From Cyanidioschyzon merolae (taxonomy: Eukaryota), in the NCBI GenBank assembly GCA_000091205.1, contig AP006494.2: a DNA stretch of 64,000 bases, one strand, 5' to 3'. The notes under the pieces were generated by a model. The model saw nothing but the letters and a program-made list of their open reading frames with translations. It was not told where the DNA came from and did not search any database. Below, piece after piece: positions 14,272-38,931 of the stretch. A program made the translations under genes and the position numbers. The number at the start of each line of letters is the position of its first letter. Positions within the stretch are counted from its first letter, which is position 1.

Positions 14272-14689
14272 TCGAGTTCAGCTCCGTCGAACGCTGTCCT
14301 CCGGGGCAGCGCTGACTCGTGCTTCACGTGCTTAAAGCTACAACGCAGACCACAGTTTTACAGTTCAAACTTGTTTACTGCACAGGCCTTTTATCCAGGC
14401 TGCGCGAGTCACTCTAAGGATCTCAGCTTCTGTTGCGATGCAGCTGTCCTTAACTGTCAACCTTTGTTCCCGTTCAAACGGTCTCGGCGTGGGTGCGTAG
14501 CAGGATAACAGCTTGCTTTCACACCGGCCACGGCAATAGTCTCTAGAGATACGTCAAGAACTTCCGCTGCAGTTCAAAACAGATGCCCGCTGATCCCAGT
14601 CACCACTGAAGCAGCAAATCTTTGCTCTGCATAGAAACGCGCTCGCGGAGACAAGGGCTTTTAGTTACGCCATTTGCACTCTACCCCCA

Positions 14690-15175
14690 GGTGCGTGTCA
14701 TCAAATGCTTTTTCGCTGTTTAGAGCAGACGCGTTCAAACTGCATTCTTTTGAAGAAATAAAAACCCAAGTGAACGGAATTGATATAGAAGTCGGGGATC
14801 CTGGAGTGCCTTCTTTGTCAGTTTCGACAAGAAAATGGCAAAAATTCCTCTTCCCGCCAGCCATCGAGGAAATAAGAGCAAGTGACGAAGGAAAAAAGAA
14901 GAAACAAAGGTGAGCCAGACGAGAAAAAGTGTTCGCCCGACGGGACGATGACGAGACTAATGGCACAGAGGGCGCGAGTTCCAGCAATCCTTGCGATGAT
15001 GAGTTCCACCAGCCGCGATAAATGCAAGCAGTTCGTGGATTGATACTTCAACACTGTTATTAGTATCAAACGTTGCGCGGTTCTGAAGAAGAGACCCGCG
15101 GAGCTGAACCGATCGAACTCTGTGAGGCATCCTCTAAAGCTCGAAGTGTGCAAGGAGAAACTGAAAACGATAGCA
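14690..15175 (+). repeat. dispersed repeat family F, copy 1 (about 0.49 kb, diverged)
   Basis: About 75-80% identical by eye to 17010-17500 and to the reverse complement of about 45470-45960. Shared strings include gtgtcatcaaatgcttttt, aatggcacagagggcgcgagttc and gctcgaagtgtgcaaggagaa. Confidence 0.6.
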
Positions 15176-15549
15176 TAGGATCAGTCACAAAAGTATGGGA
15201 GGCGTCCGCGCGTGGATATTTATTTATCCTAGGTGAGGTTGGAACATTTTTCTGTGTCACTGACATGCGTAGTATGCCGAAGCTGTAAACGTAAAAGTAT
15301 TTCGGAAAAATCTCAAGGCAGGAACAGTGCAAGCAGTTTGGTGTTACATTTTAATATTGCGCCTCTATCGTGGCGCGCTCAATTTCCAGAATACATTTAC
15401 GCAACTCAACCGCTGTTTCCAGGTGGAAACCTATTTGGCGTGGAGCACCCGCAGTAACCAACTTGAACTTGCGCGGTCTAGTTTCCGGGGGTGCTTTGCG
15501 TTCCCTCAGTTTGCTTCGCTGCCTTCGAAGCTCGTGCACTGGGTCTTAA

Positions 15550-16203: not shown

Positions 16204-17009
16204 ATACTTTTCTTGGCTTCGCGAGCGTACTACGTACTGTTCATAGCGGCTTCTTGCGGGATCATGGGCCCGGAAAAGGACCGTCAAAGATTCATTTATA
16301 TGCTCCAGCTCCTTTGATGGTGCAAGATCGGTGCTTTGAACCAGAGTCACCCCGGATGTGCGATTGCTGCCGCAACCCTGAACTAGGCCAATGCCCTTCC
16401 TCAAACTTTAATGTGTGCCATTAACCTTGGGCAAGTGTTTTCTCTATGGCGTAAGGGATAGATCTGTTCCAGAGTGTGTCGCTGTGACATACTCCGTTCA
16501 CTTCGATCCTTTACTGCTGTGCTCAGATGGTCGCGAGGCATCATATCTTGCGCTGAATTCACTGCATGTCTAGTGCGATGGCTCGTGCCCGATATAAGTG
16601 GTCGTCCTTTTTTTGGATGTGCAATCACAGGATTAGTTATGTGTGCGGTTGCAGATCTGTTGCTTTCCGCCAGTATAAAAAATCTGCGCGCTTTCCATTT
16701 TCATTCTAAGAGCTGAATACCGATGTTGTCAAGCCTCTCGCAGATTCGACGTAAAGGTTGACAGATGTTTTCGCGTAGCGCTAGCTATATTCGTCTGCTT
16801 CGCATTTGCTGTCCAGGAACTCAATCTGGTACAGTAAAAGAGCGCAGGTACAGTCCCCGTCAAGACGTATGCAACTATCAATTGTATGCCAGATGGTAGG
16901 TGGGTTCTCCGCGTGCGTTTCTGTCTCGAATCGTCTAAGCTATATGACTCATAGGTGGATGCACGCATTCGGTACGAGCGCATGCACCTTGTTTTAGTCT
17001 TTCACCTCA

Positions 17010-17500
17010 ATTGCGTTCCATCCCCAGCCGTGTGTCATCAAATGCTTTTTAGCGATTTGTACCAGATGCATTCAAAGTGCGTTCATCTAAAAAGAATATA
17101 AAACCATGGAAGAGGTATGCACACGGAAATCAGGAATCCTAGAGATTTGTCATCACCGGCTGCCGGCAAACAATGAAAAAATCCTCTCCTCGATGTTACT
17201 CGAGCAAAGACAAGCGAATGAAGAAGAAGATGGTGATGAGGGGATATAGGCGAGAAATCGTGCCTGGACGACGGGATGATGACAAGACTTCGGTTGAACG
17301 GAGGGCACGACTTCGAGGACTCCTTGCAGTGGTGAGTACAATCAGCGGCACAGCAGGCATGGACTTCGTGAAACGAGATTCCAACGCTGCCATCAGTATC
17401 CGACGATATGCTGTTCTGAAGACGAGACCCGAGCAGTTGACGTGATCCGACTTTGTTAGGAGCCTCTTACGCTCGAAGTGTGCAGGGAGAAGCTGAAGCC
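17010..17500 (+). repeat. dispersed repeat family F, copy 2
   Basis: See the family F copy 1 entry. It lies directly upstream of the partial B copy. Confidence 0.6.
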
Positions 17501-17559
17501 CGGAGCACAGTCCTGTCCAAAAAGGCTGGGAAGCGTCCGTGGGTGGATAGTAACGTTCC

Positions 17560-18218
17560 CGAATCGCTCTCCAGCTTGGATCTTCCTTCCGATACGTGTT
17601 TCCTTGGAGACGATATAATGTACCAGAAATCCTCCATCGAACGGATAGGCGCCCTCTTCATAGTGCAGCGAACAGCGCCTTCGACGAGGTATCGCTCAGA
17701 AGACGCCCGTGATCTTTTTTGGACCGCACCGGGCGCGGAAACGGTGACGGGCACTGCGGAGGGCGTCCTTTGCTCTCCGAGGGCGCGTGCCGAGCGCTGG
17801 TGCGAGCGTTCACGTGACGCATGGCAGGCCTCGGAGGACAATTTGAGATGGAGCTATATGAACACGAGGCCACAGCGAATTGTCATCGATGCGCAAGGCG
17901 CAGCGTGGATAGGCACGAAGAAGATGAAAGAGCCAAGCGAAGCGTGGATCGCGAATAGCGCCGGTGCACGCGATGCGTTGACAACACCCGGAAGGAGCGG
18001 GATTGGGACGTGAGCGCGGCCACATGCATCCTTCGACTGCTGAAAGTGAGGCTGGCACCATATGAGGGACCGGCGCTTCAAATGCTGGAGGTAAGATATA
18101 GGAGAATGATGCAGTCGCGGAAAAATCCCACAAAGGCTGGTGTTGATGCCAGTTGGAAGAGGCCAAAATTTTAGAGCGTGCATCTGAGTTAGAGGGCCAG
18201 TTGTATGTCATTCTGACG
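17560..18218 (+). mobile_element. repeat family B, partial copy (3' half including the conserved terminus)
   Basis: ORFs 17453..18013 and 17810..18211 are near-identical to 20563..21177 and 20974..21438. It ends with ggccaaaattttagagcgtgcatctgagttagagggccagttgtatgtcattctgacgtgg. Confidence 0.8.
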
Positions 18219-18383
18219 TGGGTCTAGAGGTCGAGGTCATGAAAAATATGTCTCGCCTGACAAAGACGAGGTCACAGAGCCAGGCTGGCCTCATGCAGAG
18301 CCGCTCCCGAATTCGCCATACTCCCCTTCGATACCAAGTGCTCGTGCGAGGCGGCTACGAGACGCGCCCCATACGTGAGGCGC

Positions 18384-19988
18384 TCATCGGGGTGCTGCGT
18401 CAGGTAGGCGTGGGGTAGCGCACTCCCCGGCGCCGTCATCAGGGTCGTTCTGATGCCGGATGCGGCTGGGGGTGCGCTGCTTTGAAGGAGTCTTCGCGCT
18501 ATTCTGCGCAGCAACGACGAGACATTCCTCGAATATTTCAGCGAAACGCTTGCGAGAGAACCGCACCTGACGCACTTCTGCAAATATGGAAGTAGCAGTT
18601 ACAGTTTCTGGAAGATGCGACAGAGTGTACGCACAGTCCTCAAAATTGCCGCGCAAAAGACAATCCTGCAGCACTCTAAGGATAGCAAGGGCGGCCTTGA
18701 ACAGAAAAGCATCACCGAGAAGAAAAAACGCATCCCATATGCGAAGAGCATCATCCAAGGGAAGCACTCGACAGTAGAGGGACATGATCCAGCTGATGAT
18801 ATACATGTCGGACTCAATTCCTATGGCATCAAAGTGAGCTGCCAGTACGGGATTCTCCGAAAAAACTAGTCTCTGTTGCAGCAAAAGATAAGCCTGCACT
18901 TCGGGATTCTGCATTTTGTAAAATGAGGACAGGCAGCGGGACTTGGAGAGAATGTTCGCAAAGCAACAAAACGCAGTCGGAGCATCTAGATACAGCAATA
19001 GCGCAGCAGCCAGGTAGGACATGCCCTGCGAATACCCGAATTCTGGACGAAAATGGGCGTATGCCTCTAAAAGGCGCCGAAGCTCGCTCTGAAACGGCGA
19101 GCCTTCCGCGTGGAAAAACCCCAGCTGTGGGAAAGTGCGAGGCAGATCGAGAACGATCGCTTTCTGGGCAGCTGGACAAATGCCTCCGTCCATTCGCTCC
19201 TTTTGGTGTGTAAGTAATGTCTCTGCCTCACCACCAGCGCCGCCCAAATCCCCATCTGCTTGGCCGATTGTAGCGTCCTGGTGATGCAACGCACGTCGAG
19301 TCCTTTTCGCTTGTTCGCAAAGGACATCGAACAGACCCGGAGCGATTTGCATAGCATTTCCAATCAACCGAGGCCAGGCTTGTCCGCGGACGTTCGAAGG
19401 TATTCCTTCAAAGATCAGGCTCCGAATGCGTTTCGATTTCAATCGCTTTTCCCAGTTGGGGATGATATCTTGTTCCCATTCTTGTGCTAGTTTTCCCTGG
19501 TACTCTTCCCAGTCCAGTAGCTCTCCGGAAGACTTGAAGGTCCTCAAAACATGCCAGCGTGAGTGATGTGCACTGTTCTGCGACTGCTTTGCACTACCGG
19601 GAGTCGCTGTCCGCTCCGCAAGGGGCTCGGCAGGCTCGCCTCCCCTGAACTGCAACTCGCCGTCCTCGCTTTGCCATAGGCGATTGCGCAGGCGCCTCCA
19701 AACGGAACCTGAGCGAGAGCGCAGCCGTCTAGACGCACTGATCCACCCCACTTCCTCAGTTTCAACGTTTGAGCAGGCGTCATTTCGGAAAAAGTCTGTG
19801 GCGTTCACCACCGTGAAGCCCGAACTCCGCGAGCACTCAGGATCCAACGCTTGTTCCGGGACAGGAATCGGCTCCTCGCCGAGGTCAACCTCGCTCCAAA
19901 AAACAGGTCCCTGCACCTCATTGCGTTGAGCTTCCTTCCCTGAGCCCATATTTCTTTCCGCATCCAGGAGTACCTCCGTAAACAACAC
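18384..19988 (-). CDS. TBC-domain Rab GTPase-activating protein
   Basis: 534-aa ORF carrying the TBC arginine-finger and glutamine-finger regions (IVLDLPRTFP ... YSQGMSYLAA) and a Rab-GAP helical core. Confidence 0.75.
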   Translation of the reverse strand: MLFTEVLLDAERNMGSGKEAQRNEVQGPVFWSEVDLGEEPIPVPEQALDPECSRSSGFTVVNATDFFRNDACSNVETEEVGWISASRRLRSRSGSVWRRLRNRLWQSEDGELQFRGGEPAEPLAERTATPGSAKQSQNSAHHSRWHVLRTFKSSGELLDWEEYQGKLAQEWEQDIIPNWEKRLKSKRIRSLIFEGIPSNVRGQAWPRLIGNAMQIAPGLFDVLCEQAKRTRRALHHQDATIGQADGDLGGAGGEAETLLTHQKERMDGGICPAAQKAIVLDLPRTFPQLGFFHAEGSPFQSELRRLLEAYAHFRPEFGYSQGMSYLAAALLLYLDAPTAFCCFANILSKSRCLSSFYKMQNPEVQAYLLLQQRLVFSENPVLAAHFDAIGIESDMYIISWIMSLYCRVLPLDDALRIWDAFFLLGDAFLFKAALAILRVLQDCLLRGNFEDCAYTLSHLPETVTATSIFAEVRQVRFSRKRFAEIFEECLVVAAQNSAKTPSKQRTPSRIRHQNDPDDGAGECATPRLPDAAPR

Positions 19989-20029
19989 TCATAGGGCACC
20001 CCTGCAGGATATCTGCGAAACCCATGTAA

Positions 20030-21345
20030 ATTAAAATGTAGTATGGAATTGCGCGCTCTGCTCCCGTCTTTCAATTTATTCCAAACACTCTTTACATACG
20101 CAACCTCAACACCACAAGTGCAGCAATAAGGGACCAAGATTCATATGCGCTTTAGGATTCTCGGTTGTCATTTCGTTGCGGATCCTTCGACTCCTTCCCG
20201 CCGGAACTCTTGATGTTAGCGGAATCGTGATGGTTCGTGAAGCCTTCAATCAAGGCTTCGTAAATTAATCGACGTCATGACCCAAATCATAACTAAACGC
20301 CTCCTCGCTTGGCCTTTCCTTACGTATAGCATGCTCACATCGCGCACACTCCAGGCTTTCTATGCCTCTGTTTCAAGGTCAATGGTGCGCGCAGCAATTC
20401 GCACCGCTGGGTTGACGACGGAAAATACCTGACGATGACTGCTGCAGACTTGTTTACGAGCTCGAGCCAAAAGTTCACTGATCGTCTCATGTCATATAAT
20501 CGATTACTTCCGCAACACGACTCCTCCTCTTTTCGTTTCCATCAACGAAACGGCATCCGGCTGTGTCGAGATATCTCCAATGGGTATGCCCCCGGAAACT
20601 CTCGTATCCTCTGTTTGCATCGGGAAGAGCCGTGGAATCCAACTTCGGTCACTGCAGCGGTCGCTGCCAGTGGAGACAGCGCCACGCTTTGCACGAAGGG
20701 AGCGTAGATGGGTTCAAATTTCTCGACTGGCTCTCCAGCTTGGATCTTCCTTCCGATACGTGTTTCCTTGGAGACGATATAATGTACCAGAAATCCTCCA
20801 TCGAACGGATAGGCGCCCTCTTCATAGTGCAGCGGACAGCGCCTTCGACGAGGTATCGCTCAGAAGACGCCCGTGATCTTTTTCGGACCGCACCGGGCGC
20901 GGAAACGGTGACGGGCACTGCGGAGGGCGTCCTTTGCTCTCCGAGGGCGCGTGCCGAGCGCTGGTGCGAGCGTTCACGTGACGCATGGCAGGCCTCGGAG
21001 GACAATTTGAGATGGAGCTATATGAACACGAGGCCACAGCGAATTGTCATCGATGCGCAAGGCGCAGCGTGGATAGGCACGAAGAAGATGAAAGAGCCAA
21101 GCGATGCGTCGATCGCGAATAGCGCCGGTGCACGCGATGTGTTGACACCACCCGGAAGGAGCGGGATTGGGACGTGAGCGCGGCCACATGCATCCTTCGA
21201 CTGCTGAAAGTGAGGCTGGCAGCATATGAGGGACCGGCGCTTCAAATGCTGGAGGTAAGATATAGGAGAATGATGCAGTCGCGGAAAAATCCCACAAAGG
21301 CTGGTGTTGATGCCAGTTGGAAGAGGCCAAAATTTTAGAGTGTAT
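20030..21345 (+). mobile_element. repeat family B, full copy (about 1.3 kb); left arm of an inverted pair
   Basis: It is the reverse complement of 31415-32775: ORFs 20435..20707 and 32093..32401 are identical, as are 20563..21177 and 31623..32237. It encodes decayed fragments of a protein with the motifs GYAPGNS and CFLGDDIMYQKSSIERIGALF. Confidence 0.85.
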
Positions 21346-22186
21346 GCCAGCTTTAGTGGACCTGTTCCATTGTATTTTTACATGAGTGTACTGTACAAGA
21401 ATATCGCATCGGGGTGAGCCGGCGCAACGAAGCTGCATGACGATGTGGCCCGCTTAGCGGATGGAATCCGATAGATGACAACAGAGGGGCCCTCTTCCAT
21501 CGAAAGTGCGCTGCTATGTTGGTTAAATACGATATTCTCTGTTGATTCCGCGACGTACAGCGAAGCGCGCTCAGTATTTTGGAACAAACCCTCAAAGTCG
21601 AACGGGGCTTGTCCACGACCCAGTGCCCGAGACGCGGCTGGGAAGGATTCTGTTGTTTTGGAGAGATTTACATGCTCGCTGCCCGTTCTCTGCAATTGTC
21701 GAGGTTCGAAGACAAGCCGCTTGACTCTTCGCGGCTGAACCTGAAGTTGAGAAATGCCCCTGCGTGCGATGGTCCATTATTTGAATAAATTCCTGCAAAC
21801 AACGCCGAGTCTCCCCATAAAAGTGGAAAAGCAGTTCGGGGTCGAATCACTGGTGCTGTGGCATACGAAATGGACTACGTTGGATAATCTCTTAGGAAGC
21901 TTTTTGGATCCTACTCTAGGCATTCTCAAGTCACTGCGCTCGTGAAAGAAGCGCCAGATTTGTGAACACCAGGCCTAAAACGCAATGCCTGGGAACGCGA
22001 TAACAGTAGAAGCGCGGTTTCTGGTGGCGGATCGTGGGTCACTAAGATGAATCATATTTATCCCTACTTGTACAGATTGTTCAGGTGGATTCGTGGCAGC
22101 CGCCAGCACGACGATCTCGAACCGCCAAAACCTGCCAACCTACGACGCTGTCGCACAAGAGACTGGGCACCTTCTCCAACTGCTGG

Positions 22187-23911
22187 ATGGGAAACGTCGG
22201 GAGCTCTGCCAGGCAACGCAGGAGAACAGCCGCCGGTATTCTTGCTGGCAGCCACGAGTCCCAGGCTACTGTTTGTGGTTCGCTGTTCGCGGCTTGCCTC
22301 GGACTCGAGACACGTAGTTCGTTGGGCCACTCGCCTGGACAAGAATGCGGGGCCGGCTCCTCTACACCCAGATTTGCAGACGGCACAAAGATTGAGCGGC
22401 GTCTTGTTGGCAAGTTCACCTCGCCTACGGGCCTTTACTCTCGGGAGCTATGGGACGAGCGGAAGGTCCGGCGGCTGATCTTGCACAATCGCTTAGCACC
22501 ACGTTTCCCGGGTGCAGAGTTCCCTGTTCGAGTGGTCGTAGAAGACGGAGTCAAGCGCATCAATATGGAGGGTAAGGGTCTATGTCCTGAATATATTCAA
22601 CACGAAATGGTTAGTGCGCTGGAAGAGTGCCCGATATGCTTCTTGTACTACCCGTGCTTGAACACAACACTCTGCTGCCACAGGGGAATATGTACGGAAT
22701 GTTTCCTTCAGCTTCGCCCACAGCGAGTCGTTGCCCACACGACAACGTCGTCGTGTCCGTTCTGCAAGCACGAGCTGATGGAGATCGTTTTCCATGGTGC
22801 ACGATCGGAGAAGGAAATGGATCAGCTTTACGAAGAAGAGAGTCGCGTAAGAGAAGCAATGGAACAGGCACGGGCTCGCCAGGAAGCCGAAGCAGCGGAA
22901 CGGAGGCTGGAGCTCAGGAGAATGCGAGTAGAGCACTGTATATCAACGCTGCGGGCCGTTGTGGCTGCCGCAGTCCATGAACGATTCGCACAATGGCTCA
23001 ATTTCGGTGGCGATTCTTTGCATGAAGCGAGCCGTCCGCAATCAGACGCAGATTGGAGAGCGTCTCTTCCAGAACCACCGGAAGACTTGCAAGACTTTAT
23101 GAACATATCGACTGCGCGGAAAAAAATATGTACATCTTTGCGTCGAACAAAATCCAGCCCGGTTATAACGAGTCGGACGGGTATTTCGGATCATATAGAA
23201 CACTCCTATGAGCGCCATCTAGCACTTGCGCAAGCTCACGGATGGCGAGGAAAGGACCCCCTGCACAATCGGACTGGAACGTTCAAATCTGAACAGCCGC
23301 GAGGTGAACCTAATAGCGAGACCCAACCAGCTACATGCAACCATTCTGAACTGCAAATTCTTCCCCTGGAAACGGTACCGAACCAGTACACGAGTTCGCG
23401 ACGACCTTCGCTGTCTTCTCCAGGGGTCTACGCTTCCTCTTCTCTTAATACGGTACCTGATTCGTCTCGTGCCCAAGATTCCGACGTGCTTACGCAGCAG
23501 ATGAGGCGTTTCGCTCCGGATGCTTCACCTGGGCAAGTCGCGATCAGCACTGATCCAGAAAGATGGAACTACAAACGTCGAAGATCAGCACGTTGCGTGA
23601 GCGTCTCCTCGAGCGCGGAACTTCTTTTGACTGTGAATTTGATGTGCCACAATACCTCCGAATCCGGTGCAACAGGAAGGAATCGCAGAAATGAACAGAG
23701 CGATACGTGCGAGCTTCCCGCCAGTGCGTTTTTGCGTCGATGGACTGGATCCAGCCGAGACCTCTACTTTGCCTGGGAACAAGAGGAACTTGCTCTTCTG
23801 CATGATATGGAGGCCAGAGGGCTCTTGGACTGGGCCGAGGAAACTGACATTACTTATGAGGAGCTGCTGCTAATTGAAGCAATCCGTAGAAGTCTCCTGG
23901 GGAACACGTAA
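22187..23911 (+). CDS. SIP5-like zinc-finger protein (N-myristoylation motif MGNVGSS)
   Basis: CPICFLYYPCLNTTLCCHRGICTECFLQL ... SCPFCKHE reproduces the fungal Sip5 signature (CPICFLYFP...CCQQPICTECFVQIKR...NCPYC). A C-terminal EAIRRSL motif is also shared. I chose the internal Met at 22187 because it creates an MGxxxS myristoylation site; the ORF itself opens at 22085. Confidence 0.6.
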   Translation: MGNVGSSARQRRRTAAGILAGSHESQATVCGSLFAACLGLETRSSLGHSPGQECGAGSSTPRFADGTKIERRLVGKFTSPTGLYSRELWDERKVRRLILHNRLAPRFPGAEFPVRVVVEDGVKRINMEGKGLCPEYIQHEMVSALEECPICFLYYPCLNTTLCCHRGICTECFLQLRPQRVVAHTTTSSCPFCKHELMEIVFHGARSEKEMDQLYEEESRVREAMEQARARQEAEAAERRLELRRMRVEHCISTLRAVVAAAVHERFAQWLNFGGDSLHEASRPQSDADWRASLPEPPEDLQDFMNISTARKKICTSLRRTKSSPVITSRTGISDHIEHSYERHLALAQAHGWRGKDPLHNRTGTFKSEQPRGEPNSETQPATCNHSELQILPLETVPNQYTSSRRPSLSSPGVYASSSLNTVPDSSRAQDSDVLTQQMRRFAPDASPGQVAISTDPERWNYKRRRSARCVSVSSSAELLLTVNLMCHNTSESGATGRNRRNEQSDTCELPASAFLRRWTGSSRDLYFAWEQEELALLHDMEARGLLDWAEETDITYEELLLIEAIRRSLLGNT

Positions 23912-24611
23912 ACGCGAGACCAGGATGACCGAAGTGGCCGTCATCCGCTGCAGAATCTATGTACGCTTACCGACCGATTTGTGTGCAATACCCCAGTTAT
24001 CAGCGAATTTTGCCAGAATGCGTTTTGACAGAGCGAGAATCGCTCCATGTTCGCGAGCAGTCACTTTGTCAAGATCGCAAATGCCCGCACTCCTTAGAGT
24101 CGAGGCTCCCGTTTCTGATGCAGTCGCGAGAACGGCAGAACTATGGGTTGTTTGGATTCCACGCAACAAAGATCACGAACACAAATGACTTTCCAATACT
24201 TTTAGCAGGATAAAGGTCGATTATAGGCCTCTAATACGTTGTCAGTTGCTGGACACCTTGTTGATCATGCACCAGCTCAAGCACGTTGGACAGACTCGTC
24301 GAACCAGTTTGCGCGCTACGCTGACTAGCCTCGAAACTGGGAAGTGTGCAGATAAATGTTGCATCATTTCACACATATGTCTAACACAGCAGCTCTTTTG
24401 TCAGCTTGTGCACCTCATGAATATATTCAAGCATACATGTCAGATGGCGTTTGAGAAACGGGTCCGATCGGCGAAGACGAGGGCCCGCATGCACGCAACC
24501 TGCATGGATTGTCGGCGGCCTCGCAGCGCGTCATGGAGGCGAATACTGTGCTTGTTTACCTCTGATAACGACTGGTCGTGTTGGGATATACATGGGCAAA
24601 AAGGAAGAAAC

Positions 24612-25992
24612 TCTGCGTGGTGCTCCCACATCGGATTAAGGTGGAACGATGTATTTCGCATCCTGGTCCAGCCTTTCGATTCCCTCCGAACTTTCTTTCT
24701 CGGTGTACTGCCTCGGTATCCAAATTGCACCATCAAGCGATTACGGATTCTTATGTAACTTTTGGATTCGCTGTCACCCTTTTTCGGAACTGTCTCTTCG
24801 ATACGTTGCCGCCGGAGTTCATTACGTCACCGGTATCAAGTTGCTCCATGACACACACGAGGAGAAGTTCGTACACTTCTCCACAGCATTACCTACTTCT
24901 CAGGCACAGGAATCCATTCTTCCGTTTTCCTTGCAAACGGCAAGCTCAAATCACGCTTTCCTCAAGTTTTCGGTGTTTCTGTCTCGGAATATCTCGCAGG
25001 TGCAGCAATCGGTGCCGCAAGACTGACGGGGGCAAGAAATCGATGTCGACCCTTGACGACTTGTTCAATAGCTGAGGCCGGAAGTGCACTGAACTACTCA
25101 CGCCGAAGAGTCGATTCCGTTCGAAAGGAAAATCTCCCTCTCTTTGTGGACATCCTCGAAGCGGCACTCGGCAGCAGCATGACGTGGCTCAATGGAACTG
25201 CACCCCAGGGCTCTTGTGTATTCTGGTTCCATGCCAAAGGGTCTTGGACTCGGACGATGGTCATTGCAGCGATCGCTTCTTCAAGAACGCGCATCACGGA
25301 TTCGCAGGAAGAGAGCGAAGACGAATCGTCCTTGCTCGAATTGATCTCCTGTCTGACTATTCCTCCCGGTTCTTTTTCACCATAGACAACATCGCTTTCC
25401 ACGAATCCCGTATCAAACGGGACGGGCGGACCTGCCATGCCGCGGACAGAGAACTCGCCGATGGCACCTCCTTGAACAGGCTCGTAAGTCTTGGGTACTG
25501 CAGTCGGCGCGAAAACGGCGCTCGATATCGAGGTGACCATGCTGCTCCCGTGATGGGCATTGACTGAGCGCTGAATCAAGAGCTCATATGCGACAGGGCG
25601 GCGCTCGGAAGCTGACGTGTGGAGGAGAGATCGGAGCACCTGCGCACCGTCAAGCGTGATCGCTGCAAATGGCGCTCGTGGGCTCAGTGCAAAGAATGTG
25701 ACAACGGCAAGTGAGGCACTGATCGCGGTCTCCGCATGAACATGAAAAGCGTTCACTTAAGCTGGAAGTAGCGAAATCGAGGCAATAGCGCTGCAATCAA
25801 TTTTCCTCCGCTGTTTAGAAGGAGCTGGAGGAAATAGAGAGACCTGCGTATTTCACGCCCAAACCAAGAGAGGCGAAAAGGAAGCATTAGCAGAGAGAGC
25901 TCGCCAGGCAGGTGTTGATGGCATTGGAAAGAGACTCAAACTTTAGAGGGTGCGCCTGACATAGGTGAGTTCGTCAGTTCCACTTCATTCCA
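24612..25992 (+). mobile_element. repeat family A, copy 2 (about 1.38 kb) carrying an intact 220-aa internal ORF on the minus strand (25094..25756)
   Basis: See the copy 1 entry. In this copy the 3' end extends into the shared terminus ...tttagagggtgcgcctgacataggtgagttcgtcagttccacttcattccaacacacgtg. The 220-aa ORF has no family I recognise. Confidence 0.8.
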
Positions 25993-28099
25993 ACACACGT
26001 GTACCGATGTTTTGCTCAGAGCAGTTTTTTAGAACATGCATACCAGTAAACGTTCTTTATTATTGTTTTTCCTCGGAGGCAACCGATGAAAAGAATGTAC
26101 TCTCTAGATTGGAGGGCGCTCGCTCGAAGAATTTGTACCACCACGCAGGCTACTAGTGGACGACCTCACTTATACAAGCTAGTCACTCTGTGTTCAGCAT
26201 GTGCACAAAACATGTTATTCGCAGTCCTTATCCTATAAGATGTGCACCCAAGATAGAGCTCAGCAAGCTCCTTATATATGGCCTCCTACAGATCAATCTA
26301 GTCCATTCTACATGTTCTCTAAGAATATTGGTAGAGTAGCCAAAGGATATGAAATTTGAACACTACTGGTACTAAGGATGATTAAGAGATACGGATGCGT
26401 AAAGAGACAGGATCGCTTTTCAGGAACATCTTCTCGCGTTTAATATCTTTGTACTGGTGTCATTCTGAAACGATAATGTTTATTGCAGCAGACTCTGTTG
26501 CTCGACTCATTGACGAATACTTTGTTCGGGAGAGTCAGTAGAAATGTGAATTGGTAATCCTGAGGGCAACCCGCCTTTAATTATGAAGAGACAATCGATT
26601 AAGGTGACATCATCAGTCGAAATGGCGATTCAGTTGTGTAGTCGCGAAAAAAAAAGCTCGTAATTGTTATGATCGACCAACTCATCCTCCTTTTTCGAAG
26701 CACATGTCATGGGTTCTCCATTCCAGATTGTTCTCCCACATTCTTAGGTAATATCCCTGTCTATAACTTACCACCGGCCAAGAAGTAAGCAGCCACTATT
26801 GGTGTTAAGCTGCTCCTTGTGCCAGCCTATTTTTCTATTTTCAGTCTGGCCGTTGGTGCCTTCTTAGTTGTCGCGTGCTAATACATCGCCCATGATTGAA
26901 TGCACAAGTCTAACTCATCCGTGACAGTTCGCTTCGACGAATCGTTCTTCGAGAGGTTAGTCTCTGCCTAAACCAGCCATGAGCTTCCGGGTTGCTTCTC
27001 TGCTCCTGAGCGGGACTGAGCGAAAGGTGCGCTCTGGTAGTTAGGCCCGCTCGCGATGCAAAAAGTGTCGAAATCTTACGTCAAGACTTGGAGATGTAAA
27101 TATGGAAAAGGCGAGTTTCGATCCCACTGTCTGCTCAGTTCTTCTGAATCCCAGAGCAAAACAAACAGATACTGGGCGAAGCGACCAAAACCATGCCACA
27201 CCGCAAAATAAATTGGAACGCTAAGAAAGAGTTGGTCCCTGAGAGCAATTATGAAGCATCCATTCAACTACTCGAAGAGCAGCGGCGGAGCTCCTTCATG
27301 GTTTCTCCGTTGCACCGAGGAGATGGAAAGCGAATTACAGGCACAGAGAAGACCGACGAAAACGTAGTCTGCATTCACTTCATGGAACCGAGGTCTGAGT
27401 CGAGTAATGAGACTCAGCTGCAACCGTTCAAGGCAGACGAAGAGAAACACTCCAAGGTGAGCGTGGATTCCGAGTTGAAGGGCGTCATGGCCGTCGCCGT
27501 GCCTCAAAATAAAGAGGACGGGACCAAAGACCGTACCGGAATGCAGATGACGCTACTTCATTTCCCAGGGCTCGGTACGATCGACATTCGGGAATCATTC
27601 ACTCCAGAATGGAGAGCGGTGGGTTAAATGATGGCGTCGGGAATGATCTCGACGCTCTGAGCATTGTATGGAGGAGAAGAGGGTGCTTAGCGCAGTTCAT
27701 TCCGAGCGTGGATGAGCGGTCAATATACCATGCGGGTGCGTCTTGACAGGAAAAAAATGAGACCAAGCTGGTGACGCCTACGCGTTCAGATGTACCGAGG
27801 CCAGAACGGTATATTCGTCTCCCAGTGCAGTCAGCTGGAGAAGGAAATGATCGATAAGTCGCGTCGACTCGTACAAGCCTATACCGCTAGATATGCAGTA
27901 CCGCGCTTGGACTGCACTCCTGCTACTTCAGAGGGAGCGTAGAGCGAGTGCCTAAATCGATTTTGTACGCTTCTCGTCGACAGGTTCAGGACGAGCTACA
28001 CGGATCCTGAGCATGTGTGCTCGATGACACAGATAGAATTGCACAGCGTGAATCAGAGATGGTTCCATTATATGTCGCATGGTAGGTCGAACAAATGTA

Positions 28100-28420
28100 A
28101 GACGAAGAGCAAATAAAAGGTCGGAGGCATTCGCTGCTGTAGTTCCACCAGCAGCAATGCGCTCAAGCGCGTTTTGCGCAGAGACATCAACGACTCGATC
28201 ACGATCCGAAAATGTTTCGTGCTTCTGGAGCGTCCAGTAGCTTTATGTTGAGCGAACTGCCGATGGAATCTTCTAGTGCTCGGTGCGGACACTGAGCAGG
28301 GACGTTGTAGACTAGCGATGGGAAAGTGTATGGCCAAGAGAGAGCATTCGATTCTCGACTCGACGAAGGCACTAGTGTGGTACGGGTCAGCAATCCGGCA
28401 TGGCTCGAGCGCCTTATACA
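28100..28420 (+). repeat. degenerate relic related to repeat family E
   Basis: gaaaatgtttcgtgcttctggagcgtccagtagctttatgt compared with E-arm ggaaatgtttcgtgcgttcggagcgtccagcggtttgtgt; the flanking similarity is weaker. It lies inside an AT-richer tract with no supported gene (26.0-29.0 kb). Confidence 0.4.
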
Positions 28421-29020
28421 CATACATCAGGAGCCCTTTTCATGGGCAATTGGCGATTGATAATGGCGCACCGTAATCCGATAGTGCAGAGTATTCGAAT
28501 GCCGCCAGGAAATGGAGTTTCGATCAAAGCCCCCGCCTATGTTGTTATGGATCTGGACGTCAAGCAGAAACCTTATGAGCTTGCTGACCGTCAGTATTGA
28601 ATCGCCCGCTACCAAGCTGCTTAACTAGAGAGCGTATCCATCGGCGGAACCTAGTGCCTTCTTTTTCAGCGTACGAACAGATCTACGTTGCTTTCTACAT
28701 TGCTTCGGCTACCCGCGGAGCGCAAAAGCGCTTGAGCCCATATGCAGCGCTCCAGGATTTCAGCGGGTGAAAACGCCGCGTTCGTTAGGTACCGAAATAA
28801 AATCTAGTGGCTGAAGTTTCCTCTTCCGTGCGTAACCTCTTCGACCGCAAAACTCAAAAACTCCTTCATTGAAGGCAGGCTACCGCATCCAGCTTGTTCA
28901 CGTTTTTCGTTCTCGTGCGATCAATGGAAGTTCAAAATATCTCATCGTTGAAAAAGCTTGTCGTGCGCGTAGCGCTAATGACTTTTTCATTACTGCCGAG
29001 GAGCGCTCGAGTCCGGTAGC

Positions 29021-29914
29021 TCAAACTTCACGTCCGACAATACTTGCTAAGCGCTCGGCCCAGTTGCTACCGGCCATGTGGGTTACAATCTGTAGCGCAT
29101 TCTGCAGCTTCTCCGTTTCACCCAAACCACCGAGAACAGCACACACGGAGCTAAACTTTTTCAGTAAAAATGCAAGCGCTTTCTTCTCCGAAAAATAGTA
29201 CAATTTAGGTAGTCGTTTGCCGTCGCTATCCTCGCGTTGATTCGTCGCCCCATTGTCGAGGAGCAGCCGCGCGACGACGTCTTCGTGTAGATATTCGAAG
29301 AGCCAGCTCGAATGCTGTAGCGCGTCGACAAATTGAGACCAGGGCTGAGGCGTATCCTCACTAAAGAAGTCCTCTATCGAAGAAAACAGTAACAGGACCG
29401 GATCTTGTGGAACCAAGAGTTGTAAGGAGCCATCTAGAACGGTATACCCAGCGGCAGCGTTGAGTCCGGCCTTGCCATCAAGAGCATTCGAGGACTCTAT
29501 TCGCTCTGCCTGACGACTGCAAACAAGCAACCAGCTGCCTTTCCCCAGCTCAGCTCGATAAAGTCCGAAAAGCCTCCACGGCTTGTCGACTTTATCGTCT
29601 AGCCGAACCTCCCACAGACATACTCGGAATCGCGCTCCTTGTGCAGCTTTCCGTGCTGACGGCAACTGGAGGCAGCGCTCACGAACGATCAAGTTTTGTC
29701 CTTCCAACTCTTTGGGCGTCAGGTATACGCCATATGCCTGGCAGTTCATGAAACAGCCAACAACTCTTGGTGGGTTATCATGCCAGCACACAACAATCCT
29801 ACAGAGTAGTGCCACAGATTCGCTGCTCCGTGGGACAGCTACTACTGAGCGGCATTCAATTCGAGACAAAAATGCCCCTGGAATGATGCGGTGAAGGACG
29901 TGCGGCGCAGACAT
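29021..29914 (-). CDS. RNASEH2B: ribonuclease H2 non-catalytic subunit B
   Basis: LLVPQDPVLLLFSSIED ... KRLPKLYYFSEKKALAFLLKKF parallels human RNASEH2B (ATPVDPLFLLLHYL ... KKYYKYSKEKTLKWLEKKV). I chose the start at the Met of MSAPHVL; the ORF extends to 30019. Confidence 0.5.
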   Translation of the reverse strand: MSAPHVLHRIIPGAFLSRIECRSVVAVPRSSESVALLCRIVVCWHDNPPRVVGCFMNCQAYGVYLTPKELEGQNLIVRERCLQLPSARKAAQGARFRVCLWEVRLDDKVDKPWRLFGLYRAELGKGSWLLVCSRQAERIESSNALDGKAGLNAAAGYTVLDGSLQLLVPQDPVLLLFSSIEDFFSEDTPQPWSQFVDALQHSSWLFEYLHEDVVARLLLDNGATNQREDSDGKRLPKLYYFSEKKALAFLLKKFSSVCAVLGGLGETEKLQNALQIVTHMAGSNWAERLASIVGREV

Positions 29915-30054
29915 GTCCCGCCACCGCCCGCGGACGGCGGTCGATGCAGTCGAAGCGCCACATCGTTCAAGATTCGCAGAGTGCGGCTTCCTCAAGAGCG
30001 AAAGCGCTTCGCTGTTCAAGTTTGGCCTTGCTCCAGCCGAATACTTTCTTCTAC

Positions 30055-30885
30055 ATGGTTCAAGAAGAATACTATTCGGTTGCTAGAGCGTTGCGCTCCG
30101 TACTCGCGAGCGGCACGCTTGACGGAGCGCGCGACTTTCGTTTTCGCTATGGCGAGAGCGCGCTCAGCGTTTGGTACGTGCCGATCCTGACTTGCGTTCT
30201 ATACTATGTTTTTCAGAGAGGAATACAACAATATATGAAAGAAAGGACTGCTCCAAAGCTGAAACAGCTTTTGTTTGTCTATAATATGACGATGAGTTTC
30301 GGCTCGGCTGCTCTTTTTGCGGCTCTTACCAAACTGCTGTGGTCTCGTTGGCAGTCGCTCTCCTTCCACGATATGATATGCTCGAAGCAGATGCACGAGG
30401 ACGGTAGAGTGCAGCTTCTGTACTGGATGAACTACTTCTTTAAGTATATTGAGCTAGCTGATACGCTTTTTCTCGCAATTAGAAAGCGCAAAATAATATT
30501 CCTGCACTCGTACCATCATGCTGCGACGCTGGTGCTGTGCTGGTCTCAGCTAGTGGAGCACTCCGCTGTTCAGTGGGTCGTCATTGATCTGAATTTATTT
30601 GTGCACATCATCATGTACTACTACTATGCGGTATCTGCGCTTGGAATCAAGCCCTGGTGGCGACGTTATCTGACCAAACTGCAAATATCTCAGTTCGTGA
30701 TCGACTTGACTGCCTGCGGCTACGCATACGGCTACTATGTGGTCTACGGTTGGGGGTCCTGTTACGGAACCGTCACGGGGGCTTACATGGGGATCGGAAT
30801 TCTCTTTTCGTATCTCCTGCTTTTCATCAAATTCTATATTGAGACATACAAAGGATCGAAGTCAGCCACGAAACTGAAGGTTTGA
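30055..30885 (+). CDS. ELO-family fatty-acid elongase (3-ketoacyl-CoA synthase)
   Basis: Histidine box LHSYHHAATL, the typical ELO helices and the MYYYY motif (IIMYYYYAVSALG). I chose the start at MVQEEYY; the ORF opens at 29944 and overlaps the divergent RNASEH2B ORF. Confidence 0.8.
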   Translation: MVQEEYYSVARALRSVLASGTLDGARDFRFRYGESALSVWYVPILTCVLYYVFQRGIQQYMKERTAPKLKQLLFVYNMTMSFGSAALFAALTKLLWSRWQSLSFHDMICSKQMHEDGRVQLLYWMNYFFKYIELADTLFLAIRKRKIIFLHSYHHAATLVLCWSQLVEHSAVQWVVIDLNLFVHIIMYYYYAVSALGIKPWWRRYLTKLQISQFVIDLTACGYAYGYYVVYGWGSCYGTVTGAYMGIGILFSYLLLFIKFYIETYKGSKSATKLKV

Positions 30886-31414
30886 GATGATCGCGTTGCG
30901 ATAGGCTGAGGTGCTCGTTCAAGAGCTACGGCCCGAGACCCCGTGCCCCGCGAACGAATGCTCTCTCGTAGAGTTCTCATGAGAACCGCGGCTGAACTTT
31001 GAGCAATAGTAGCCTAGGCTGTCACCAAAGAAACAATAAACATCGGTAGTTTTCGAATCGTACCCACATACAGCACCTACGTGGCCCAATATGAGAAGTC
31101 GGCGCTGCTGTAGACGCTATCACCGAATACCTGGCTATGAGCCAGTCTAGCAAATCTCACTGTCTGCAACGCAGGCGGCCTGCGCTTTCGTCTTCCCTGA
31201 TTGCAGACGGCTCTCGCGCATTCAGGGTTGGTTTGCTTGAAATTGTAGATCTAAGCCCTAGAATATGTTCTTTTACCGCATGCGCGTATGAAGTGGAGTG
31301 GTCCATCTAGACCGTTCTGGATGCGTGCCGTTCGCCTTCGAACAGGGATCAGTAGGCACGCTCGCTCAGATGCGAAAACGTTTACGCTAGTTCGAAAAGA
31401 AGAAGCAGTCTACA

Positions 31415-32775
31415 CCACGTCAGAATGACATACACCTGGCCCTCTAACTCAGACGCACGCTCTAAAATTTTGGCCTCTTCCGACTGGCATCAACACCAGC
31501 CTTTGTGGGATTTTTCCGCGACTGCATCATTCTCCTATATCTTACCTCCAGCATTTGAAGCGCCGGTCCCTCATATGCTGCCAGCCTCACTTTCAGCAGT
31601 CGAAGGATGCATGTGGCCGCGCTCACGTCCCAATCCCGCTCCTTCCGGGTGGTGTCAACACATCGCGTGCACCGGCGCTATTCGCGATCGACGCTTCGCT
31701 TGGCTCTTTCATCTTCTTCGTGCCTATCCACGCTGCGCCTTGCGCATCGATGACAATTCGCTGTGGCCTCGTGTTCATATAGCTCCATCTCAAATTGTTC
31801 TCCGAGGCCTGCCATGCGTCACGTGAACGCTCGCACCAGCGCTCGGCACGCGCCCTCGGAGAGCAAAGGACGCCCTCCGCAGTGCCCGTCACCGTTTCCG
31901 CGCCCGGTGCGGTCCGAAAAAGATCACGGGCGTCTTCTGAGCGATAACTCGTCGAAGGCGCTGTCCGCTGCACTATGAAGAGGGCGCCTATCCGTTCGAT
32001 GGAGGATTTCTGGTACATTATATCGTCTCCAAGGAAACACGTATCGGAAGGAAGATCCAAGCTGGAGAGCCAGTCGAGAAATTTGAACCCATCTACGCTC
32101 CCTTCGTGCAAAGCGTGGCGCTGTCTCCACTGGCAGCGACCGCTGCAGTGACCGAAGTTGGATTCCACGGCTCTTCCCGATGCAAACAGAGGATACGAGA
32201 GTTTCCGGGGGCATACCCATTGGAGATATCTCGACACAGCCGGATGCCGTTTCGTTGATGGAAACGAAAAGAGGAGGAGTCGTGTTGCGGAAGTAATCGA
32301 TTATATGACATGAGACGATCAGTGAACTTTTGGCTCGAGCTCGTAAACAAGTCTGCAGCAGTCATCGTCAGGTATTTTCCGTCGTCAACCCAGCGGTGCA
32401 AATTGCTGCGCGCACCATTGACCTTGAAACAGAGGCATAGAAAGCCTGGAGTGTGCGCGATGTGAGCATGCTATACGTAAGGAAAGGCCAAGCGAGGAGG
32501 CGTTTAGTTATGATTTGGGTCATGACGTCGATTAATTTACGAAGCCTTGATTGAAGGCTTCACGAACCATCACGATTCCGCTAACATCAAGAGTTCCGGC
32601 GGGAAGGAGTCGAAGGATCCGCAACGAAATGACAACCGAGAATCCTAAAGCGCATATGAATCTTGGTCCCTTATTGCTGCACTTGTGGTGTTGAGGTTGC
32701 GTATGTAAAGAGTGTTTGGAATAAATTGAAAGACGGGAGCAGAGCGCGCAATTCCATATCAAATTTTAATGCTAT
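31415..32775 (-). mobile_element. repeat family B, full copy; right arm of the inverted pair
   Basis: It is the reverse complement of 20030-21345. Its inner end has cgcacgctctaaaattttggcctcttcc, the reverse complement of the shared terminus. Confidence 0.85.
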
Positions 32776-33672
32776 GCCAGTAAAGTGTGCGCTGGAACTG
32801 CACGCGGGCGCATTGCGCAACCTCGAGAGCCTCGCAGGATGGCGATGACCGAAGTTGAAAATTGCTCGCTGACAATCAAAGAAAGAGAGTCCGTGACGTC
32901 CACCGGTACAGGTGTCGAACACTTGTTCTGTTTCTGGGGCTTAATATTCGGTGCAATGCATCGATCTGGGGCTCTGTGAAATTCGATAGCATGAATTGCG
33001 GGAAATAGCGGTCTCGGATACAATTTTTTCCGTACCCCCAAGCGAGGACGCCTCTAGGCTGATGTGCGTCTCCTATCGCCTCTTAATGGACCGACGAAGC
33101 CTTAATAGTTGTGCAAGGGCCGTGCAACGCGGGTTCTCCCGCAGAGCACAGCGCAGGCGACGAGACGCAGCAATCGCTCCGAACAGAACCCGCAGCGGTG
33201 CCTCCAGTTTCGCAAAGAACGATTGAGCCAGGCTCTACACCATGGGCATGGATGAAACGATCAAACGCTTTCACTTCACGGGGTGGCTGCTCCGCAAGCA
33301 CTCGAAGCTGGGGACATGCAAAGCGGAGCCGAAATCTCCGCCCTGGTTGTAGAGAGCTGCGGCACGGCGGGAGGATGCCTCCGGTGAGCTCCATCGCTCT
33401 CGCCGAGCAGACAACATCACCGATTGTTTTGATAGGAGGACCTTTGGTTCCAATTACATAACTGCGAACTGGCGAATAATGTCGGCAATCGGGAGAATGT
33501 TCTCGATGGCGAACCGGTGCTGCCGCAAAGCTCACCGGTAGGTTAGTAGCCTCGGGCGGTGATTGCTGTTTCAATCGGAGCGATTGAGGACGCGCTTCCC
33601 GTGCTATCATTGCTACTAGAAGACCTTGTGTAGTTCCGCACGCGCTGTGCTGATTGCATAGCGTCATCAATC

Positions 33673-34878
33673 ATGGCTGTGGGAACCAGATGGTTCATTC
33701 TGAGCAGGAAACTTTCAGGACTGCCTCCGCAGCGTCCTCGCCTCGAGGCGCTGCGAGCGCTGCTCCAGTCTGAAACCCCGGCTTTTGAGTTAGCTACCGA
33801 TGTGCCTGCTCAAGCAAGCGACCAGCTCGAGTGCTCCAAGCCTCACCGCGTCGACGCATACGCAGTGCAGAAAAAGCCTGAATGGCTGCAGGTGCGTCCT
33901 GCTGGTGACCACAAGTCCGTGGCTGAGTACAGGCGGCTCTACCGTGCAGTGCGTGACTTGAACTTGCACACCGTATGTGAGGAGGCCCGGTGTCCTAACA
34001 TTGGCGAGTGTTGGGGCGGTGGAACTGCGACAATAATGCTTATGGGAGACACTTGTACCCGAGGTTGTCGATTTTGCAGCATTAAAACTTCTCGAAGCCC
34101 GCCACCACTCGACCCAGCCGAACCGGAGAATGTGAGCTCTACTATTTCTCGATGGGGTCTCCGCTACGTTGTTCTCACGAGCGTCGATAGAGACGACCTT
34201 ACTGACGGGGGCGCTGCGCACATTGCCTCAACCGTGAAGCTTTTGAAACAGAGAGTGCCTTCTATTTTGGTGGAGACGCTTACTCCGGATTTCGGCGGGT
34301 CTACGTCGGCTGTTCACACGGTCGTTGAGTCCGGAGTCGATGTTTTCGCGCATAACATTGAGACTGTTGAGCGACTTCAACATGTTGTTCGTGACCGGAG
34401 AGCCGGTTACAAGCAGAGCCTGTATGTTCTGGAACAAGCCAAGGCGCATCCACAGCGTGGCAAGGAGATAGTGACCAAGTCCAGCATCATGCTGGGCGTC
34501 GGAGAGACCCGAGCAGAAGTCAAGCAGAGTATGATGGATCTTTTAAATGCTGGGGTCCAGATTCTTACATTGGGACAATATCTGCGACCGTCTCGAAAAA
34601 ATATGAAAGTTGAAGAATGGATTCATCCTGATGAATTCGAGGAATGGAAACACGAAGGTGAGAAACTCGGCTTTCTTTACGTAGCATCGGGCCCACTTGT
34701 CCGTTCTTCGTATAGAGCAGGTGAATTTTTCATAGAGTCTTTGTTCCGGAAAGAGCACAAACAAAGCGCCTCCAGGGGAAGCACCTCCTGGGAGAAAAAT
34801 ATTGGGTCAGGCACAGTTGCTGAGGCGGAACGACAGTATCAAGAGAATTTATCGCAGAGACCCTCACCTGTCGCCTAG
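33673..34878 (+). CDS. LIAS: lipoyl synthase, mitochondrial-type
   Basis: Radical-SAM and auxiliary cluster motifs [14 protein letters not shown] and [12 protein letters not shown], and a full-length family match. The N-terminal presequence is Arg-rich. Confidence 0.9.
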
Positions 34879-37668: not shown

Positions 37669-38931
37669 CCGTACCTTGGCGACAGCAGTCCAATAAGAAG
37701 CTGCGCTGGCTGGTCTTGCGGCACTGCAAACTACCCTCAGAGCACATTGGCAGGTAGAGCGCGCCCCTGCGACGTCCGAGAATCACCCGCCTCTGTACGC
37801 GCGCGAAAACAGAGCGCTGCGACCGGAGTTGCGATTTCGATGCCGCGCAGCGCCTCGACGGCAACGCGGGTTATCAGCGTAATCGTGCGCGGCAACTGTT
37901 CATGTGCGTAGTTCAACGCGATTCCTCATCGCTCAGGCGGGTGCGTCTACGCGGAGCGGTGTTTATTCGTTGCTCGATCATGCAGGGGAGTGCGAGCGGT
38001 GGCTTCCGAGTACGAGATGGAGCACAATTACGTTTTGCTTCTTGTGTGGGGCCCTTCGCACGGAAGATTTTGAAAGTTCACCGTTGAGAGCGGCCTACCG
38101 TTCGGATGTTGCCCTCAGAGTGTAGATGGTCATCGCTAGCGATAAATGTGGATGCTCCTCGCGTGTAGAGCTTGCTGGCATGGACGGAAACCTGAGTGTT
38201 TATCACGGTTTTCACATTCACGCTTCAACCTTGACTGTCGATCTTAGGGCGGGATTTGAAGAGATTGCAGCGCCGATTCGCGATAAGCGCTCAAGCGTCG
38301 TGTAATCCAATCTACCAAATAATTTGCAGCATTTCGGGACTGATGTTTCCTGCCAGGACACCTTGACAGGTGCTCGTCTAGAAACGTGCATGATGATTGG
38401 CTTCATTGCTGTTGCCACTGAGCAAACTTCGGGATAATAGTGCCCTCATGGTTTCTCTTCTGAGTCCAAACCGAAAAGGGATCCCGAAGCGGACAGCGTG
38501 CATCAATTGGTGCACTTTTTGGTTAGTAACGGATCTGGCGCGGGGCGTGGAACTCGAAACTTTCTGGCGCTCGTCTGGTTAACCACAATCGCAGCCGATC
38601 CCGATATGGGTACAGCAAAGCAGCTCAGTCTCCGCGAGGCGATCAAAGCAGGATGCGTCCGGCATAGCCGCACGTGCCCTCCTTTGTCTCGATGCCCAGA
38701 GAATCCTCGAATAAATCTATCCTTTTTTCTTAGGCAAATAATTACCTGGCGTCGTTGGAATGCACACGAGCTTGGATTGCAGCGGCAGTCGTTTTCCCAA
38801 TTTTCTTGCGAACCGCGCATCCTGGAATATGGTTACATGTACCGATTTCGCCTCAGGAAGAAAGCCGTCCGCTTTGACGAAATCATGCTCGTTATTTTGA
38901 CCACAATGGCGGCTTTGAAGGGCCTCACTTT

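Follow-up and report, generated by a model that had tools for sequence, protein, structure and literature searches.

Near-identical inverted arms around a 10-kb gene block of Cyanidioschyzon merolae are decayed DDE_3 transposon relics, probably homogenised by homologous recombination

Introduction

In the nuclear genome of Cyanidioschyzon merolae 10D, two near-identical segments of about 1.3 kb, here called arms B2 and B3, stand in opposite orientation on either side of some 10 kb of ordinary genes. All coordinates refer to the 64-kb stretch that was analysed (the window). The original prediction for this DNA took the whole 12.7 kb for a composite or foldback-like unit, and also saw in the arms a substrate for recombination-driven inversion of the enclosed genes. 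The locus raises the question of whether the arms brought the genes with them or arrived separately. We conclude that the arms are probably separately inserted, long-dead transposon copies, and that ectopic homologous recombination probably homogenised their interiors and rearranged the neighbourhood.

The arms are decayed IS630/Tc1-mariner-type transposons

Self-comparison of the window by gapless extension gave an inverted repeat of 1355 nucleotides at 98% identity (20030-21384 / 31416-32770). BLASTN delimited a near-identical core (20030-21343 against 32770-31457, inverted) with 99.3% identity over 1314 bp. The predicted near-identity in opposite orientation was thus borne out, well above the limit of about 90% that had been set for it. 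Reading of the arm ends confirmed that the conserved terminus (..ttttagag..tcattctgacgtgg) faces inward in both arms.

20019-21388, plus strand: arm B2, decayed IS630/Tc1-mariner-type (DDE_3) relic; head at the left, tail at the right; core 20030-21343
31413-32780, minus strand: arm B3, of the same subfamily as B2, inverted; tail at 31413, head at 32780; core 31457-32770

A nucleotide profile made from subfamilies A, B and C (nhmmer) identified eight full-length-alignable copies of about 1.35 kb in the window, belonging to four subfamilies: A1, A2, B1 (a half copy), B2, B3, C1, C2 and E. Arm B2 was matched at 20022-21371; its DDE_3-like reading frame, at 20435-21177, is broken. From one subfamily to another, identity over the full length is about 59% (A2 versus B included), with the length retained. 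The arms are therefore two of eight dispersed copies. Both arms have a terminal inverted repeat and TA flanks of their own, and the idea of a composite or foldback-like unit was not borne out. The other copies named in the text are the following.

17556-18228, plus strand: B1, third B copy, represented by its tail half; NuA4 on one side, 3' end of the RabGAP-TBC gene on the other
24623-25968, plus strand: A2, within the bracketed block; DDE_3 relic of the same superfamily as the arms but of a different subfamily (nhmmer match)
38925-40314, minus strand: C1, inverted partner of C2, 99.2% identical to it (BLASTN); same superfamily
43832-45224, plus strand: C2, with the longest surviving transposase-derived open reading frame (ORF; 44152-44901; Pfam DDE_3 E 7.6e-5)
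59262-60604 (nhmmer match 59281-60588): E, the sole copy of the fourth subfamily

The family was recognised at the protein level with a profile of ORFs taken from the window itself. Searched exhaustively against 1.84 billion proteins, this profile gave 250 matches at E<=1e-3. Ten long matches (300-400 residues) were scanned. Seven carried a Pfam DDE_3 domain (4e-18 to 3e-29), mostly together with a helix-turn-helix, and three had no Pfam match; one example, P0215, scored E 1.2e-15 in the profile search and 3e-29 for DDE_3. Helix-turn-helix domains are typical of IS630/Tc1-mariner transposases. The first two catalytic Asp positions ('SIDE..' and 'MDN/LDD') align between the window ORFs and the DDE_3 proteins, and a 'YSP..NP' stretch is recognisable. 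The third catalytic residue, the Glu of 'NPIE', has been lost in the ORF of C2, the longest one. Taken alone, this ORF stays below the Pfam cut-off for DDE_3, and a consensus ORF of the four subfamilies reaches 31.4 bits against a cut-off of 28.6. A word-indexed protein search with the C2 ORF retrieved only the ORF itself, the family being seen only by the exhaustive profile search.

The sense strand of the elements still holds pieces of one reading frame, but stops and frameshifts interrupt it in every copy, and no intact transposase was found in the window. Between subfamilies there was no clear third-position excess and single-base indels were common, indicating that coding constraint does not act on these copies at present. 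The arms are thus decayed relics of an IS630/Tc1-mariner (DDE_3) transposon of about 1.37 kb, without a working transposase. They resemble members of that superfamily in this length, in their short terminal inverted repeats, TA next to most of the ends and single transposase frame and in the two aligned Asp positions. They differ from them in that all copies in the window are pseudogenes, the longest ORF lacking its third catalytic residue, in that the subfamilies have kept their length in spite of their low identity, and in that near-identity ends before the termini.

A short imperfect terminal inverted repeat was found around CCATGTCAGA, and this motif recurs at the heads and tails of several copies. 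It spans about 20 nucleotides in B2, where the head and the reverse-complemented tail agree at 17 of 21 positions, and has a core of 10/11, TGTCAGA(T)CAA, in C2. B3 is flanked by TA on both sides (31411-12 and 32781-82) and B2 by GA and TA. TA also adjoins the tails of B1 and E and the heads of the C copies, and is absent from the A copies and the C tails; such a dinucleotide is weak evidence. The terminal inverted repeats and TA flanks fix the elements at 20019-21388 and 31413-32780, slightly beyond the predicted arm coordinates. Three further observations concern the ends of the copies. The near-identity of A1 and A2 runs 11 bp (TCTGCGTGGTG, 4093-4103 / 24612-24622) beyond the inferred terminal inverted repeat; a hexamer, TCTGCG, stands just outside the head of B2 (20011-20016), and such sequences could be either part of the element or a target preference; and the E copy has TA-rich flanks (..TATATATAT / ATGATATATAG..).

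We considered the possibility that the 12.7 kb is a composite or foldback-like mobile unit, whose two active arms would move the enclosed genes together. The near-identical inverted arms with the same terminus inward, and their origin from a transposon family with terminal inverted repeats, are what such a unit would have. Yet, as shown above, the transposase frame is broken in every copy, and the subfamilies are separated by single-base indels. Furthermore, no target-site duplication was found around the 12.7-kb unit when we looked for one, its flanks (..catgtaa on the left, gctatgc.. on the right) being unlike; the TA flanks belong to each arm, and none of the copies showed a duplication longer than TA. 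The heads of the arms, which form its outer ends, are just 27% identical over 11 nucleotides. For a foldback element, one would also expect a short or absent middle, whereas here it consists of 10 kb of conserved genes, and the arms contained no long internal or terminal inverted repeats or foldback-type subrepeats. We therefore regard a composite or foldback-like unit as extremely improbable, an assessment that takes in the gene order and the contig collections described below.

The interiors of the arms are near-identical and their ends are not

The identity of B2 and B3 is uneven: 3/11 in the head, 1305/1314 (99.3%) in the interior and 28/46 (61%) in the tail. The head and the tail of B2 agree in a terminal-repeat variant, CATGTAAA, that B3 does not have. 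The same pattern was observed in another high-identity pair, A1 and A2, which are in direct orientation (4093-5439 / 24612-25956) and 99.6% identical by BLASTN. Their identity drops from this level at the same internal landmark, ..TTTAGAG.GTGCGCC, after which both copies go on with diverged tails. Since transposition would have copied the termini along with the rest, their divergence fits old insertions followed by homogenisation of the interior.

As far as can be judged from the sequences, the pattern is that expected if two transposons inserted independently long ago and ectopic gene conversion later made their interiors alike. The enclosed genes would not have been moved by the arms; the interior of one arm would have been overwritten by that of the other, the ends being left different. 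The fallback of the original prediction, two independent old insertions, is also true, and it is compatible with later recombination.

Exchange between the B2 and B3 positions is visible among strains. In metagenome contig L006, the B copy next to ELO has a B3-type tail followed, 23 bp further on, by B2-type alleles, whereas the same copy in L007 has B3-type alleles. This linkage of tail and alleles spans less than one read length and is consequently independent of how the assembler resolved the repeat. B1, for its part, is 98.4% identical to B2 and 97.6% to B3 (BLASTN), with a B3-type tail, and is crossed in the same context by contigs L027-L030. In the C pair, C1 of 10D has a patch of indels and substitutions of about 95 bp (44371-44465 versus 39684-39773) that is absent from C2 and from all metagenome copies at either position. 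Either a cluster of mutations private to this copy or a short tract converted from a diverged member of the family could explain it.

Another explanation for the high identity would be that a master copy active until recently gave rise to both arms, their closeness and inversion being coincidental and without any role in rearrangement. A lineage-specific expansion of repeats has indeed taken place in C. merolae, where they make up 12.7% of the genome as compared with 0.59% in Cyanidiococcus (PMC9812998), and the window contains several pairs that are 99% identical. However, it is precisely the ends, which transposition copies, that have diverged most, and the transposase is not intact in any of the copies of the window. 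In addition, every high-identity partner in the window lies within 3-20 kb of its mate (BLASTN). The B family was also restricted to this locus among the contigs: the ORF of the B body was found in only two contigs of the whole collection, both from this locus, and a 24-mer of the B head in only two of the JGI contig set, both covering the LIAS-side junction here. Finally, each of the five synteny breakpoints described in the next section holds a B or a C copy. Fresh insertion accordingly seems to us very unlikely.

B and C copies mark five synteny breakpoints relative to a repeat-free relative

The sole relative compared was assembly GCA_041825655.1 (contig L053), which is also present in hot-spring metagenomes; one sequencing run behind it is a Los Azufres fumarole metagenome. 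Its proteins are 68% (TBC), 77% (ELO) and 74% (LIAS) identical to those of C. merolae, and the element profile had no match in it (nhmmer). The window itself was assigned to C. merolae 10D by exact matches of its proteins to BAM80775, BAM80776 and BAM80778. The genes of the bracketed block and its flanks in 10D are the following.

18384-19988, minus strand: RabGAP-TBC gene (BAM80775), flanked by B1 and B2; Pfam RabGAP-TBC 4.7e-49; product identical to BAM80775 from an internal ATG onward
22085-23911, plus strand: SIP5-like RING gene (BAM80776), first gene of the bracketed block; SIP5_N (precomputed Pfam)
29021-30019, minus strand: ORF (BAM80777 by position); ortholog in the relative 37% identical, in the same orientation
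29944-30885, plus strand: ELO fatty-acid elongase (BAM80778, exact match), last gene of the block; Pfam ELO 6.5e-61
33673-34878, plus strand: lipoyl synthase gene (LIAS), right flank; precomputed Pfam LIAS_N and Radical_SAM

The block thus holds what had been predicted, namely the SIP5-like gene, an A-family element, a lower-GC tract (GC 0.43 at 26-27 kb) and ELO. The 'RNASEH2B' label given to the ORF at 29021-30019 is without Pfam support, that ORF having no Pfam match.

The order in the relative (tblastn) is Metallophos (-), NuA4 (+), SIP5 (+), BAM80777-like (-), ELO (+), TBC (+), LIAS (+), EXOSC1 (+), E2F (-), epimerase (+), o668 (-), TAP42 (-), DegP (+) ... CDC23 (-).

The order in 10D is NuA4 (+), B1, TBC (-), B2, SIP5 (+), .., ELO (+), B3, LIAS (+), .., E2F (-), C1, o689 (+), epimerase (-), C2, .., D1, TAP42 (-), DegP (+), .., D2.

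The SIP5..ELO block therefore has the same order and orientation in both; the ancestral arrangement is kept in a genome without the elements, which further argues against arms that moved it as cargo. What has changed is the position of the TBC gene: it lies between ELO and LIAS on the plus strand in the relative, and in 10D it has moved across the SIP5..ELO block and been flipped. B copies stand at all three novel adjacencies of this stretch and at neither of the two conserved ones. Similarly, the 3.5-kb C1-C2 block (o689 and the epimerase) is inverted with respect to the relative, with C copies, themselves inverted, at both breakpoints, so that C copies occupy 2/2 novel adjacencies and B and C together all five synteny breakpoints. 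A rough count (1/10 for B, 1/3 for C, 1/8 for the three orientations) puts the chance of such placement and orientation at a few in a thousand.

These findings suggest that crossovers between oppositely oriented B copies reordered the neighbourhood. From a starting order like NuA4-B-SIP5..ELO-B-TBC-B-LIAS, two nested inversions, one over SIP5..TBC and one over SIP5..ELO (the block between today's B2 and B3), would give NuA4-B1-TBC(flipped)-B2-SIP5..ELO-B3-LIAS, the order of 10D. The orientations of the B copies (B1 +, B2 +, B3 -) are those needed for these two inversions. Inversions in C. merolae relative to Cyanidiococcus have been reported before (PMC9812998).

One metagenome contig contains the junction expected of a flipped block

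Contig L006 (JGI 3300054705, 9122 bp) reads ELO(+), a full B copy, TBC(+). This junction is the one expected if the block between B2 and B3 were flipped, and it is also the adjacency found in the relative. The reciprocal junction, SIP5-B-LIAS, was not found among the metagenome contigs, and exact look-ups of the ELO and TBC products of 10D matched no contigs. At the C pair, the junction of 10D is present in L044, L045 and L048 and both reciprocal recombinant junctions in L043 and L046. L046 is recombinant at a third inverted pair as well, D, where it joins 47097-D-55677 as if flipped. The results at C and D are subject to the same phasing caveat as L006, which is set out below.

No empty site was seen, all sampled strains having both arms in place, and no contig of the collections contained the 12.7-kb unit at a second site, as a composite unit might have led one to expect. 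Coming from the LIAS side, contigs L017, L022 and L025 end 60-100 bp short of the B3 head (32842-32870), and not within B3; these stops could come from a gap in coverage, from differences between strains or from a further short repeat.

The proposal that the arms are a substrate for recombination-driven inversion is therefore supported indirectly. The B copies at all three breakpoints around TBC, their inverted orientation, their homogenised interiors and the junction in L006 speak for it; present-day polymorphism in orientation is unproven. It is conceivable, but doubtful, that natural populations of Cyanidioschyzon have standing polymorphisms of the flip-flop kind for the 10-kb block, the 3.5-kb C block and the 6.9-kb D block, kept by efficient homologous recombination between dead relics that are continually re-homogenised. 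If this were true, the repeats, 12.7% of a eukaryotic genome known as the 'simplest', would hold many structural switches of a reversible kind.

Inversion and its alternatives

A different route to the order of 10D would be that TBC was looped out between two direct B copies, a solo B3 being left behind, and that the circle then recombined with another B copy, the third, which stood between NuA4 and SIP5. In agreement with this, TBC now lies between the direct copies B1 and B2, with a single copy, B3, at its old site, and the number of recombination events, two, is the same as for nested inversions. However, the circular intermediate must survive and reintegrate, whereas inversions are single intramolecular events, and inversion is documented next door by the C pair in comparison with the relative. 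Moreover, L006 fits an inversion intermediate, if it is real and comes from the same genome as the NuA4-B1-TBC junction of L027-L030. On balance, excision and reintegration appears rather unlikely, and we prefer inversion between B copies.

Several points weigh against the latter. Excision and reintegration is equally short and leads to the same end state; it too is a recombination between B copies, but one in which the SIP5..ELO block between B2 and B3 would never have been inverted. With a single relative compared, the polarity of the changes rests on parsimony and on their coincidence with repeats. The D pair, which is inverted and 99.8% identical over 1.73 kb (47098-48827 / 55678-57407; BLASTN), brackets a 6.85-kb block (TAP42, DegP, ..) that is collinear with the relative and not inverted. 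The head of B3 is degenerate and its terminal inverted repeat poorly preserved. A complete B copy together with both of its flanks is crossed by L006 alone, a contig from a short-read metagenome. It cannot prove polymorphism, the repeat being too long to be phased with short reads: the copies in the metagenome strains are identical over stretches far beyond read or k-mer length, and the assembly graph is the same for either inversion isomer, so that the join in L006 may be arbitrary. Over all traversed repeats, parental and recombinant joins occur at about 4:4, the ratio that arbitrary choice would also give.

We also considered a site-specific switch driven by an invertase. The repeats are 1.3 kb long instead of short sites, and this candidate was rejected. 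In the ORFs scanned, which were the largest of the block (the SIP5-like gene, 29021-30019, ELO and 27193-27627) and TBC, Pfam detected no recombinase domain.

Comparison with known inversions and mobile units

The phenomenon is of an ordinary, already known kind, and the C. merolae locus is a new example of it. Inversions mediated by Ty elements, IS elements and hobo belong among the further examples of inversion between inverted repeats. On chromosome XIV of Saccharomyces, a 24-kb 'flip/flop' region combines inverted-repeat inversion with homogenisation by gene conversion (PMC9731477). The two loci share kilobase-scale, highly identical inverted repeats around ordinary genes, mosaicism of the conversion type and a gene order that changes, with respect to a relative, exactly at the repeats. 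In C. merolae, in contrast, the repeats are dead transposon relics and not a gene family, the alternative orientation is found in only one ambiguous short-read contig, and the history would involve three copies and two events. With composite transposons and foldback elements, the locus has in common the inverted arms around a middle segment; it differs from them in its dead arms, unlike outer ends, lack of a unit duplication, ancestral and syntenic cargo and lack of subrepeats.

The locus provides a breakpoint-level example of how the repeat expansion of C. merolae reshapes gene order relative to repeat-poor relatives. It also assigns one abundant repeat superfamily of this genome, of about 1.35 kb, to decayed IS630/Tc1-mariner transposons, distinct from the Fanzor1 element CMe-1A. 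Gene targeting by homologous recombination is described as routine in C. merolae (PMC3764038). Homologous recombination could flip segments at kilobase-sized inverted repeats, which calls for caution in engineering and assembly of this genome, and in short-read assemblies the flanks of such repeats may be joined either way.

CMe-1A (Fanzor1) fragments and minor observations

The consensus of CMe-1A and its Fanzor1 protein were taken from the supplement of Bao & Jurka 2013 (PMC3627910). Nozaki et al. 2007 (PMC1955436) described a 'novel interspersed repetitive element' whose ORF is WSV486-like, and this element is probably CMe-1A. Neither the consensus (BLASTN) nor the protein (tblastn) matched inside either arm; by sequence comparison, the arms are a different kind of element from CMe-1A, the other abundant repeat of the C. 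merolae genome. In the window, CMe-1A/Fanzor1 matches were obtained at 14680-15214, 16995-17547, 27226-28257 and 45510-45866 and in the D pair. Such fragments thus adjoin B1, lie near C2 and inside the bracketed block, and form the D pair. Two of them are listed here.

16995-17547, plus strand: internally deleted CMe-1A (Fanzor1) fragment; consensus 788-969 and 2835-3081 (BLASTN), protein residues 642-717 (tblastn)
27226-28257, plus strand: decayed Fanzor1 (CMe-1-like) relic, inside the tract of the block originally described as AT-rich and gene-poor (tblastn)

The second of these aligns with residues 335-696 of the CMe-1 Fanzor1 protein (28% identity over 370 residues, E 1e-26, tblastn), and the intergenic space that holds it measures only about 1.1 kb in the relative. 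The arms of the D pair are a diverged Fanzor1 fragment (residues 464-675 of the CMe-1 protein, 33-36% identity, tblastn), and the D family had no Pfam match on its plus strand. The fragments at 16995-17547, 14680-15214 and 45510-45866 are internally deleted or 3'-terminal.

The fragment at 16995-17547 abuts the truncation point of B1. In one metagenome ORF, P0183, a C-terminal piece of Fanzor is fused to the DDE_3 relic frame. These two cases suggest a recurrent association of the Fanzor1 and DDE_3 kinds of element. The missing head of B1 had raised the idea of a 5'-truncated retrotransposon, which was ruled out by the DDE_3 domain, the terminal inverted repeats and the position of the B1 truncation against CMe-1A. 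Structured-RNA and tRNA-derived readings of the repeats were dropped because scanning the window for Rfam families and tRNAs gave no hit. Lastly, the E copy is located between o354 and CDC23; in the relative, an ORF of 205 residues takes its place.

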